Positions 1,103-2,539 of a DNA stretch of 4,938 bases are shown one piece after another (positions within the stretch are counted from its first letter, which is position 1; the number at the start of each line of letters is the position of its first letter). A model generated the notes under the pieces. It made no database searches. It saw only the letters and a program-made list of their open reading frames with translations, and was not told the origin of the DNA. Position numbers and translations under genes: made by a program. The stretch lies in the IMG/VR virus record IMGVR_UViG_2648501498_000015; one strand, written 5' to 3'. The DNA comes from a virus. Its lineage: Duplodnaviria > Heunggongvirae > Uroviricota > Caudoviricetes.

Positions 1103-2152
1103 GTGCGGGTATTACTTCGACCTGTTCTGGTACCGGAACTCGGGCTGGTGATCGTTAAGCCGGGCCGTGAATCCATGCCAGTATTCCACAATACCCGGGT
1201 ATTGATGGAGCCGGAACCGAAAAGCATGCGTAATCTGCCGTCCGGGGTCGTTCCTGCCGTTCGCCAGCCGCTGGTGGAAGACAAAACATTGCTGCCGTTT
1301 TTCAGTAACGCACGGGTGATTCGTGCTGCTGGTGGTGCTGGTGCATTGTCTGACTGGCTGTTGCGCCATATTAAATCCTGCCAGTGGCCACACGGCGATT
1401 ATCATCACAGCGAAACTGTCATTCACCGTTATGGTACCGGCGCAATGGTGTTGTGCTGGCACTGCGACAACCAGCTGCGTGACCAGACATCCGAATCACT
1501 CGAGCAACTTGCTCATCAAAACCTGTCAGCATGGATGATTGACGTCATCGGTCACGCAATAAGCGGTACGCAGGAGCGTGAATTATCTTTGGCTGAATTA
1601 TCCTGGTGGGCGGTCCGCAATCAGGTGGCGGACGCGCTACCGGAAGCGGTATTACGTCGTTCGCTGGGGGGGCGTGCGGAAAAAATCCGCTCAATGTACC
1701 GTGAAAGCGACATCGTGCCGGGAGAGCAGACCGCCACCAGCATACTGAAGCAGCGCACAAAAAATATTGCGCTACCGCCTCACACCCACCAGCAACAGAA
1801 CCCACCACAGGAAAAGACGGTGGTCAGCATTGCCGTTGATCCGGAGTCTCCGGAATCCTTCATGAAACGACCTAAACGTCGCCGCTGGGTAAATGAGAAA
1901 TACACACGCTGGGTAAAGACACAGCCGTGTGCGTGTTGTGGTAAGCCAGCGGACGATCCTCATCATCTGATTGGTCATGGTCAGGGCGGAATGGGAACAA
2001 AATCCCACGATATTTTCACGCTACCGCTGTGTCGGGAGCATCACAACGAGCTTCATGCGGATCCGCTGGCGTTCGAAGAAAAGCATGGTTCCCAGGTTGA
2101 TTTAATTTTTCGTTTTCTTGATCACGCCTTTGCAACCGGCGTGCTCGGGTAA
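1103..2152 (+). CDS. ydfU: YdfU-like prophage protein (DUF968 family) with two HNH-like Cys/His motif copies
   Basis: 349-aa ORF from GTG 1103, preceded by GGAGG at 1094-1098. C-terminus CACCGKPADDPHHLIGHGQGGMGTKSHDIFTLPLCREHHNELH has a CxxC...HH...CxxH HNH-like arrangement. A weaker internal copy is PHGDYHHSETVIHRYGTGAMVLCWHCDNQL. Length and neighbours match Qin ydfU as recalled. ATG at 1175 is an alternative start. Confidence 0.75.
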   Translation: MRVLLRPVLVPELGLVIVKPGRESMPVFHNTRVLMEPEPKSMRNLPSGVVPAVRQPLVEDKTLLPFFSNARVIRAAGGAGALSDWLLRHIKSCQWPHGDYHHSETVIHRYGTGAMVLCWHCDNQLRDQTSESLEQLAHQNLSAWMIDVIGHAISGTQERELSLAELSWWAVRNQVADALPEAVLRRSLGGRAEKIRSMYRESDIVPGEQTATSILKQRTKNIALPPHTHQQQNPPQEKTVVSIAVDPESPESFMKRPKRRRWVNEKYTRWVKTQPCACCGKPADDPHHLIGHGQGGMGTKSHDIFTLPLCREHHNELHADPLAFEEKHGSQVDLIFRFLDHAFATGVLG

Positions 2153-2164
2153 AAGAGGTTACTG

Positions 2165-2539
2165 ATGCGTATAGAGTTTGTTTTGCTTTACCCGCCGACG
2201 GTGAACACCTACTGGCGACGTCGTGGCAGCACATATTTTGTATCAAAAGCCGGTGAGCGTTATCGCCGGGCTGTGGCGCTTATTGTTCGCCAGCAGCGGC
2301 TGAAATTAAGCCTGTCCGGAAGGCTGGCGATAAAGATTATTGCCGAGCCACCGGATAAGCGCCGCCGTGACCTGGACAATATTCTGAAAGCGCCGCTGGA
2401 TGCGCTGACGCATGCGGGGTTGCTAATGGACGATGAGCAGTTTGATGAAATCAATATCGTTCGTGCTCAGCCAGTATCTGGTGGACGTCTGGGGGTGAAA
2501 ATTTACCCCATAATGCTTGAAGGGCAGGTCAAAAAATGA
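2165..2539 (+). CDS. rusA: RusA-family Holliday junction resolvase (crossover junction endodeoxyribonuclease)
   Basis: 124-aa ORF with Shine-Dalgarno AAGAGG at 2153-2158. It carries RusA signature blocks: KRRRDLDNILKAPLDALTHAGLLMDDEQ (catalytic Asp cluster) and GGRLGVKI, and N-terminal LYPPTVNTYWRRRG aligns to RusA LPWPPSNNRYYR. The stop TGA at 2537-2539 overlaps the Q start. Confidence 0.9.
   Translation: MRIEFVLLYPPTVNTYWRRRGSTYFVSKAGERYRRAVALIVRQQRLKLSLSGRLAIKIIAEPPDKRRRDLDNILKAPLDALTHAGLLMDDEQFDEINIVRAQPVSGGRLGVKIYPIMLEGQVKK

Follow-up and report, generated by a model that had tools for sequence, protein, structure and literature searches.

The locus described here raises the question of what the prophage protein YdfU does, and whether it carries one HNH nuclease motif or two. 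Few prophage genes of E. coli are as common as the YdfU-like genes, yet ydfU is counted among the uncharacterised genes of K-12, and a 2024 E. coli y-ome paper still treated YdfU as uncharacterised. The stretch analysed, referred to here as the window, comprises 4,938 nucleotides of a Caudoviricetes record (IMG/VR IMGVR_UViG_2648501498_000015) and is the early region of a lambdoid prophage; parts of it match 4,822 of 5,426 complete genomes. The features that bear on the question are as follows.

823..1101, plus strand: upstream open reading frame of 92 aa (phrog_1212), from the reading frame and a PHROG match; translationally coupled to ydfU
1094..1098, plus strand: Shine-Dalgarno sequence GGAGG for the GTG at 1103, from sequence inspection
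1103..2152, plus strand: ydfU-like gene, 349 aa, DUF968 / His-Me finger group 7, from the reading frame, Pfam PF06147, phrog_96 and K-12 YdfU (b1560)
1103..1582, plus strand: N-terminal domain of YdfU, aa 1-160
1379..1465, plus strand: N-terminal Cys/His cluster C93...H101-H102...C118-W-H-C121, from the 59-sequence alignment
1583..1888, plus strand: middle region and linker of YdfU, aa 161-262, with low-confidence structure and conserved short motifs
1889..2149, plus strand: predicted C-terminal His-Me (HNH) nuclease domain of YdfU, aa 263-349
2165..2539, plus strand: RusA-family Holliday junction resolvase, 124 aa (PF05866, E = 5e-16; phrog_34)
2536..3357, plus strand: Q antiterminator of the PF03589 type with a DnaJ-like zinc finger, from the reading frame, Pfam and PHROG

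The 349-codon reading frame at 1103-2152 begins with GTG, and the stop codon of the upstream reading frame (1099-1101) sits between GGAGG and this GTG, abutting the ydfU start. The 92-aa frame lies immediately 5' of ydfU in 80/80 close relatives. A preliminary description of the window had called the product YdfU-like, and this identity is borne out by a match to Pfam DUF968 (PF06147; 257.1 bits, cut-off 27.8, E = 1e-76, aa 160-346) and by 85% identity over all 349 residues to YdfU of the K-12 Qin prophage (b1560). Furthermore, phrog_96, 'HNH endonuclease', matches across the full length. The product and YdfU of lambdoid prophages are orthologues. Near-identical full-length copies of YdfU number in the thousands, and YdfU-like genes occur in Stx-converting phages.

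Downstream, the ydfU stop codon occupies 2150-2152, AAGAGG follows directly (2153-2158) and the rusA ATG lies at 2165, which leaves a spacer of 12 nt; ydfU had been placed 6 nt before the Shine-Dalgarno sequence of rusA, which is wrong, as AAGAGG begins right after the ydfU stop. The RusA product scores 59.9 bits against PF05866 (cut-off 22.8), and its translation contains the Asp residues D69, D71 and D90, which we take to be D70, D72 and D91 of K-12 RusA. The start of Q overlaps the rusA stop (ATGA). Within the delayed-early 'nin' operon, ydfU comes last or next to last, just 5' of Q.

The C-terminus of YdfU is a His-Me (HNH) finger. C276, C279, C310 and H313 are the predicted structural zinc ligands, H287, H314 and H318 the predicted ligands of the catalytic metal and H288 the predicted general base, while the Asn of the HNH motif is replaced by D303. 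Conservation was counted in an alignment of 59 diverse YdfU homologues. The Cys residues are conserved in 57 (C276), 47 (C279) and 48 (C310) sequences, the His residues in 50 (H287), 51 (H288), 49 (H314) and 50 (H318), and D303 is kept in 56/59; position 313 is H in 23 and C in 22. Clades that lack C279 also lack C310 and the ligand at 313, and they retain the His residues. Some members of the family (P0211, P0226 and P0244) have lost all catalytic His residues and kept the Cys residues, which points to a non-catalytic function in part of the family.

We found that the AF2 model has a pLDDT of ~90 over aa 265-349, arranged as beta-beta-alpha. As in DUF968 and His-Me group 7 generally, this region has the beta-beta-alpha metal fold, with the catalytic His ending strand 1 and the metal-binding residues on the helix. 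The C domain aligns with the YbcO family (DUF1364), the other member of group 7, at an hhalign probability of 91.6% (E = 8.4e-7), and a profile search against PDB sequences retrieved YbcO (3g27) at E = 0.04, McrA at 0.17 and IscB at 0.18; PDB sequence searches with the whole YdfU protein and with the full-length profile gave no match. The C-terminal HNH-like motif noticed at the outset is thus upheld by the YbcO-family profile (E = 8e-7), by residue mapping onto Gp16 (below) and by conservation in the 59 homologues. Structure prediction and family alignment had been proposed as its test, and for the C-terminal part they returned a beta-beta-alpha fold in AF2 and His and Cys residues conserved across the 59 homologues. 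The HNH classification of DUF968, as His-Me finger group 7, was published in 2017 by Jablonska et al. (PMC5714182).

We compared YdfU with named systems that share features of sequence, structure or position. YbcO (PDB 3g27; DLP12, phage 82) differs in having 96 aa, in lacking an N-terminal domain or linker, and in its first two zinc ligands, which are spaced CQ-x7-C versus CxxC in YdfU. Gp16 of Staphylococcus phage ΦNM1 shows 39% identity to YdfU over 59 aa by BLASTP (E = 1e-9). The HNH motif CxxC ... H ... CREHH-x3-H is common to the two proteins residue for residue, such that C276, C279, H288, C310, H313, H314 and H318 of YdfU correspond to C145, C148, H157, C181, H184, H185 and H189 of Gp16, and Gp16 passes the DUF968 threshold (29.1 versus 27.8 bits). 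By experiment, Gp16 is a RecA-interacting nickase, and mutating its zinc site abolishes function (PMC12817073). Its gene is one of the early genes of the phage, and the replication/recombination cluster there includes RusA. The N-terminal domain of Gp16 is NinB/Orf-like, whereas that of YdfU is an unrelated predicted zinc domain; YdfU lacks the NinB/Orf-like N-terminal domain of the Orf-HNH family, and its match to that family (HNHc_6, PF16784) covers the HNH part only, at 22.4 bits, under the cut-off of 26.6.

The HNH nuclease P1 Ref depends on RecA, binds two zinc ions and has a basic segment in front of its core that binds DNA (PMC4330346). A Ref-like HNH core is present in YdfU, and the likeness to Ref (PDB 3plw) is structural only: YdfU gave nothing at E <= 1 against PF16786 (RecA_dep_nuc, the Ref family) and no sequence match to 3plw. 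Ref also differs in lacking a folded N-terminal domain. Lambda Rap (NinG), of His-Me group 24, is an endonuclease encoded in the nin region ahead of Q, and its substrates are D-loops and Holliday junctions (PMC5714182). Its Pfam family is another one (PF05766); by its position, Rap is likely the functional analogue of YdfU.

The N-terminal domain contains its own conserved Cys/His cluster. C93 is present in 57/57 non-gap sequences and C118 in 57/59, while the two other positions are solely H or C, namely H in 33 and C in 22 at position 101, and H in 34 and C in 23 at position 121. The covariation is strict, with C101 accompanied by H121 in 22/22 sequences and C121 by H101 in 23/23. In the AF2 model, C118 and C121 lie at the junction of a beta-hairpin (105-118) and a helix (119-125), and the individual elements (strands 105-110 and 113-118, helix 119-125) are consistent with a hairpin-helix unit with zinc ligands at its junction. 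Because of the strong conservation and the strict H/C covariation, C93, H/C101, C118 and H/C121 very probably make up a four-ligand zinc site, as predicted from sequence. A Pfam scan of five diverse N-domains matched no family at E <= 10, and a fold search with aa 1-160 retrieved no structural neighbour and no His-Me finger. These data support a view of the N-terminal domain as a conserved module of its own, predicted to bind zinc and without known relatives. Between the two domains, aa 161-262 have a pLDDT of 39-74 and align to the first half of the DUF968 model of Pfam; the linker terminates in the basic patch FMKRPKRRRW, of which P257 and K258 are each found in 56/59 homologues.

We also asked which neighbours of ydfU are constant. 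RusA lies at +16 nt from ydfU in ~75/80 close E. coli relatives, and across species-level loci it adjoins DUF968 in only 11/~74 (downstream in 3/74, upstream in 8/73). Q lies downstream of DUF968 in ~66/74 species-level loci, spanning three unrelated Q families. The adjacency of RusA is therefore real but lineage-specific, and at the species level it is Q rather than RusA that stays constant beside DUF968. In 7/7 loci the gene after the short paralogue YbcO is rusA, which it overlaps by 4 nt, and RusA also follows YbcO in DLP12, whereas DUF968 rarely adjoins RusA outside Escherichia. The Qin prophage of K-12 illustrates the variation: its YdfU has both Cys/His clusters, as in the window, and a PF03589-type Q lies downstream, but the gene right after ydfU is the Q gene ydfT, RusA being absent, the 92-aa upstream frame is not annotated, and Qin has rem-hokD upstream. 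Our data indicate that the 'two-nuclease module before Q' of the preliminary description holds for close E. coli relatives and for YbcO and fails across species (11/~74). Similarly, RusA lies directly downstream here, after the 12-nt spacer, and in ~75/80 close relatives, but not across species. RusA and Q were already given as neighbours by Jablonska et al. in 2017 (PMC5714182). Both the HNH class and the RusA/Q neighbourhood are thus published, current understanding is not overturned, and what was first noticed at this locus is mostly ordinary and already classified. Added here are a residue-level map onto P1 Ref and ΦNM1 Gp16, the N-terminal domain as a separate conserved predicted zinc module, and a species-level view in which Q is constant.

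What, then, might YdfU do? The reading that we favour, to which we give an even chance, is that YdfU is an HNH nuclease targeted by its N-domain and linker and acting beside RusA. The protein has three parts, an N-domain of ~160 aa with its own predicted zinc site, a flexible linker with the basic patch RPKRRRW, and the C-terminal HNH domain. The HNH domain would nick or cut DNA, probably with no strong sequence preference. The N-domain and the basic linker may guide it to recombination or replication intermediates, such as branched or RecA-bound DNA, and the adjacent RusA could afterwards resolve Holliday junctions in cooperation with it. P1 Ref, ΦNM1 Gp16 and, in function, lambda Rap are the nearest relatives that have been studied, and they act in this way. 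A part in recombination or DNA processing, suggested for YdfU in the preliminary description and proposed already by Jablonska et al. in 2017 (PMC5714182), is the best inference.

It is unlikely, although worth weighing first among the alternatives, that YdfU is a host-directed or conflict nuclease, which would nick host DNA to stop replication or hit competing elements or defences. Gp16, which has the HNH motif in common with YdfU, inhibits host growth and replication and aids phage propagation. P1 Ref raises ciprofloxacin killing of lysogens (PMC4713147), and toxins and defence systems often contain His-Me domains (PMC5714182). However, ydfU is intact in thousands of lysogens, cryptic prophages included, and sits amid recombination genes of the nin region. 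A PADLOC scan for defence systems returned no matches, and the counter-defence role floated for this protein finds no support. Host-directed and recombination roles are not mutually exclusive.

A second alternative concerns the architecture and is less probable again. Internal duplication would have given rise to the N-terminal cluster as a second His-Me finger, now degenerate and without catalysis, making YdfU a pseudo-dimer of two HNH units. A treble-clef zinc site underlies the His-Me finger, and in the model both regions share an order of elements (a helix with a conserved Trp, a Cys loop, a beta-hairpin, a Cys at the helix start and a long helix). Weak alignments recur in one register, between the N and C halves and by hhalign over 76 collinear columns. 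The N motif aligns with the Gp16 HNH at E = 0.082 in the same register as in the alignments of N with C, and its 'CQ-x7-[HC]' resembles the YbcO knuckle 'CQ-x7-C'. The scores themselves argue otherwise. Compared by BLASTP, the N and C halves gave E = 6.3. With profiles of the N, middle and C regions built from 31 diverse homologues, hhalign of N against C gave E = 0.12, which an unrelated control (N against the middle region) equalled in score, whereas the positive control, the C domain against YbcO, gave E = 8e-7. Column-shuffled controls reached the real score in 41/200 cases for N against its own C domain and in 42/150 for N against the YbcO family. Furthermore, H102, taken at first as the counterpart of the catalytic His, is found in 23/59 homologues and H108 in 7/59, R126 takes the place expected for the last metal-binding His, and in the model H101 and H102 precede strand 1 and do not lie at a strand end. 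Of the upstream copy of the HNH pattern, then, the cluster itself is present and conserved, while its status as a copy made by internal duplication finds no support in the sequence, profile and fold tests.

Slightly more doubtful is a related proposal, that aa 1-160 are a cryptic, dead relative of a short YbcO-type nuclease, so that YdfU would be two fused group-7 His-Me units. The features that would speak for kinship with YbcO are the 'CQ-x7-C/H' zinc knuckle, the beta-hairpin and 'C-x2-C/H-D-N' at the helix start. If true, the dead unit would recognise a DNA structure or a RecA filament and aim the live HNH domain, and this would explain why YdfU can replace YbcO 5' of RusA.

Improbable to a greater degree is that YdfU is a non-catalytic factor that binds DNA or protein and is tied to late-gene control, with the HNH fold serving as a zinc-finger scaffold. 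The position of ydfU immediately 5' of Q in ~66/74 species-level loci, whatever the Q family, is consistent with such a tie, as are read-through YdfU-Q fusion proteins on several contigs (P0044-P0046) and the catalytic His residues missing in some members of the family. However, ~85% of diverse members retain the catalytic residues, and the presence of three unrelated Q families beside ydfU is more readily explained by a fixed slot in a mosaic genome than by physical partnership. We give very little weight to a terminase-associated or homing HNH endonuclease, roles that are frequent for phage HNH proteins and accord with the PHROG label 'HNH endonuclease', as ydfU lies in the early region ~8 kb 5' of the terminase genes, in a syntenic slot conserved across genera, and intron or intein context is absent at ydfU.

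In a GWAS, ydfU was associated with haemolytic uraemic syndrome; we read this as linkage to Stx2 phages and not as a clue to function. Proteins in which the N-domain seems fused to tail-fibre, portal or capsid sequences (P0143, P0190, P0193, P0154, P0170 and others) were set aside as chimeric assemblies or gene calls, since the same E. coli N-terminus meets unrelated phage proteins at junctions that vary, and internal repeats of YdfU segments (P0270-P0272) were treated likewise.

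The best match to the window was strain CD45 (98.9% identity, 95% of the query covered), and 4,822 of 5,426 complete E. coli genomes, together with many Stx-converting phages, match parts of it. Within an E. coli lambdoid prophage, the window covers the junction between the early and late regions, and it contains the following elements:

1-390, + strand: hok/mok/sok (sok/mok/hokD) locus, a type I toxin-antitoxin system and the first element in gene order
1-138: sok antitoxin RNA, 5' end cut off (Rfam RF01794)
76-288, + strand: mok/hokD ORFs (PF01848)
357-374: terminator-like hairpin in the hok/mok/sok locus
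505-756, + strand: rem
823-1101, + strand: 92-aa ORF with three Cys (phrog_1212), its stop codon between the ydfU Shine-Dalgarno and start
1103-2152, + strand: ydfU-like ORF
2165-2539, + strand: RusA
2536-3357, + strand: Q antiterminator
3391-3407 and 3438-3455: two terminator-like hairpins just 3' of Q, the latter followed by a T-run
3595-4085 region, + strand: TerB-family pseudogene, with an internal stop according to the closest genome's annotation
3954-4085: short DUF3927-like ORF, 3' of the TerB pseudogene
4129-4318, + strand: STnc100 small RNA (119 bits)
4282-4343, - strand: AgvB, an anti-GcvB sRNA (93 bits)
end of window, + strand: SASA esterase gene, beginning only

The region after Q (3360-3460) has the look of the late promoter, with its short leader RNA and the terminator tR', at which Q acts. 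STnc100 and AgvB are prophage small RNAs overlapping on opposite strands (4129-4343). The 92-aa ORF (823-1101), for which Pfam gave no match, lies directly 5' of YdfU in 80 of 80 close relatives (from IMG/VR, identity at least 91%) and is absent from the K-12 Qin annotation.

The ydfU ORF at 1103-2152 is real. It comprises 349 codons with a GTG start that abuts the stop of the upstream ORF, and a GGAGG Shine-Dalgarno is found at 1094-1098. Residues 160-346 of the protein match Pfam DUF968 (257 bits), PHROG 96 ('HNH endonuclease') spans its whole length, and YdfU of the K-12 Qin prophage aligns with it gap-free at 85% identity. All seven Cys fall in two clusters (93/118/121 and 276/278/279/310), and both Cys/His patterns were found where the preliminary description placed them. 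The main points of that description were already published, since Jablonska et al. (2017; PMC5714182) joined DUF968 and DUF1364 as His-Me group 7, naming YdfU and YbcO, reported RusA, Q and antirepressors as neighbours, and hypothesized a recombination role like that of NinG and Ref, while Curtis et al. (2014) described the DUF968 HNH motif and fusions of DUF968 to Erf, Rad52 and RusA. YdfU is still listed as uncharacterised in the 2024 E. coli y-ome paper.

We found that the C-terminal motif of YdfU, proposed earlier as HNH-like, is a genuine His-Me (HNH) finger, as indicated by its AlphaFold2 fold, its YbcO profile match and its conservation. In the AlphaFold2 model (40 homologues, 39-97% identity), aa 265-349 have a pLDDT of ~90 and are ordered as a helix, a Cys loop, a strand (285-288), a long loop, a strand (306-309), a helix (311-319) and two further helices. 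The best matches of the C-domain profile to PDB sequences were YbcO, McrA and IscB (E = 0.04-0.27), and profile-profile comparison with the YbcO family (44 sequences) gave a probability of 91.6% over 61 columns (E = 8.4e-7). Across 59 YdfU homologues, with identity down to ~26%, the zinc positions C276, C279 and C310 are kept in 57, 47 and 48, respectively, and position 313 holds H in 23 homologues and C in 22, an exchange seen already within E. coli relatives. In the catalytic region, H287 is kept in 50, H288 in 51, D303 in 56, H314 in 49 and H318 in 50; judging from McrA and IscB alignments, D303 probably holds the usual Asn position of the motif. One subclade of the aligned homologues (P0164, P0180, P0210, P0233 and P0236) has lost C279, C310 and position 313 together and kept the catalytic His. 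Because clades without C279 also lack C310 and 313 but retain the His residues, the pattern is as expected for one structural zinc site (C276, C279, C310, H/C313) separate from a predicted catalytic centre (H287, H288, H314, H318). The converse is seen in a subclade of full-length homologues (P0211, P0226 and P0244) that has lost all four of H287, H288, H314 and H318 while keeping the four zinc Cys and the N-terminal zinc site; its members are apparently catalytically dead yet retain a function.

Studied relatives suggest what such a domain might do. P1 Ref is an HNH nuclease that binds two zinc ions, cuts only RecA-bound DNA and D-loops, and needs a disordered basic segment before its core to bind DNA (PMC4330346). 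ΦNM1 Gp16, which we identified as DQ530359 8051-8722 and which matches Pfam HNHc_6 and DUF968, is a nickase that binds and is stimulated by RecA and whose zinc-site mutants lose function (PMC12817073). Its HNH motif aligns with that of YdfU residue for residue (39% identity, E = 1e-9), with C145/C148/H157/C181/H184/H185/H189 corresponding to C276/C279/H288/C310/H313/H314/H318. Lambda Rap/NinG, from the same genomic region, is a branch-specific His-Me endonuclease (PMC5714182). YdfU carries a basic patch, RPKRRRW, immediately ahead of the HNH core, in a linker modelled with low confidence, and P257 and K258 of this patch are present in 56 of 59 homologues. Given these nearest studied proteins and the basic patch, we propose that YdfU would be a metal-dependent nicking or cleaving enzyme, that the zinc domain at its N-terminus, together with the basic linker, would aim it at recombination or replication intermediates, and that it may share a pathway with RusA in prophages that carry both genes. 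We regard its fold and predicted catalytic competence as well supported and highly probable; what it cuts, whether it depends on RecA and whether it cooperates with RusA are inferred, and we give the proposal as a whole an even chance. That YdfU is instead a host-directed nuclease seems unlikely.

The N-terminal cluster was described as a degenerate copy of the HNH motif, the one new claim of that description, and this claim is unsupported. Conservation extends to both Cys/His clusters in the 59 homologues: C93 is found in 57 of 57 non-gap rows, C118 in 57 of 59, and positions 101 and 121 hold only H (33 and 34) or C (22 and 23). When position 101 is C, 121 is H (22 of 22), and when 121 is C, 101 is H (23 of 23); a C and C pair never occurs. 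Such conservation and covariation strongly point to a zinc site with four predicted ligands (C93, H/C101, C118, H/C121). The models place C118 and C121 at the junction of a tight beta-hairpin (105-110, 113-118) and a helix (119-125), where pLDDT is 87-95, and the site may be treble-clef-like. A dead second HNH unit arising by duplication would be consistent with the same order of secondary-structure elements in both regions, with a recurrent sub-significant alignment in one register (for the Gp16 HNH, E = 0.082), and with the zinc knuckle CQ-x7-H/C (window 1379-1405), whose CQ and spacing are as in CQVRIPGVC of YbcO (residues 17-26), although this likeness is statistically non-significant. Every homology test was at noise level: BLASTP of the N half against the C half gave E = 6.3; hhalign gave E = 0.12, scoring the same as N aligned with the middle region, which is unrelated; and column-shuffled N profiles scored at least as well as the real one in 41 of 200 comparisons with the C profile and 42 of 150 with the YbcO profile. 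Pfam gave no match in five diverse N-domains. Foldseek against BFVD found no match below E = 0.1; these negative fold results hang on AlphaFold models in which residues 1-60 and 190-262 have low confidence. Moreover, H102, the suggested counterpart of a catalytic His, is kept in only 23 of 59 homologues and H108 in 7 of 59, and R126 stands in place of the last metal-binding His. We therefore consider a duplication unproven and improbable. The H/C covariation defining a separate N-terminal zinc site, an N-domain without any relative found, the structural proximity of YdfU to Ref, its exact residue-by-residue correspondence with Gp16 and the species-level neighbour statistics are modestly new.

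We asked whether YdfU and RusA form a two-nuclease module before Q, as had been suggested. In the 80 close relatives the order 92-aa ORF, YdfU, RusA is nearly universal, and RusA starts 16 nt past the end of the tblastn YdfU match in ~75. This pairing was uncommon in 80 species-representative genomes (almost all Enterobacterales, 43-95% identity; neighbours from simple ORF calls), where RusA lies downstream in only 3 of 74 loci. There, a Q antiterminator is downstream in ~66 of 74 loci (PF06530 38, PF03589 16, PF06323 12; families may overlap), and the upstream gene in 73 loci is often an antirepressor (Rha/ANT 23, KilA-N 9), a DNA methylase (12) or RusA (8). Single loci from Yersinia, Xenorhabdus and a Hafnia-like phage give the same picture, and in K-12 Qin ydfU is followed directly by Q. 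Thus, for the long DUF968 form, pairing with RusA is mainly confined to Escherichia, and the slot just before Q is the constant feature. That YdfU is a non-catalytic factor tied to Q is very improbable, and a packaging or homing HNH is the least probable reading. YbcO (DUF1364) overlaps rusA by 4 nt in K-12 DLP12 (L169:3085-3734) and in 7 of 7 further loci (L170-L176; Morganella, Yersinia, Metapseudomonas), independent of the Q family downstream and even without Q. This pairing is much tighter than that of YdfU with RusA, and the arrangement of RusA immediately preceded by a group-7 His-Me nuclease does recur as a genuine pair.

Among the fusions listed (P0044-P0046 and P0053), P0044-P0046 are read-through YdfU-Q proteins of 607 aa on several contigs, including complete chromosomes, and a deletion-made YdfU-RusA fusion was seen once. 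In other database proteins the same N-terminal part of E. coli YdfU is joined to sequences of tail fibre, portal or capsid proteins (P0143, P0190, P0193, P0154, P0170), or YdfU segments are repeated internally (P0270-P0272); these seem to be chimeras produced by assembly or gene calling in repetitive prophage regions rather than true domain fusions. Just 5' of the window, the closest genome carries an AAA-ATPase gene and an overlapping HNH endonuclease gene (L001:9824-11819) between the replication genes and hokD, which could be a prophage-borne cargo or defence-like pair.
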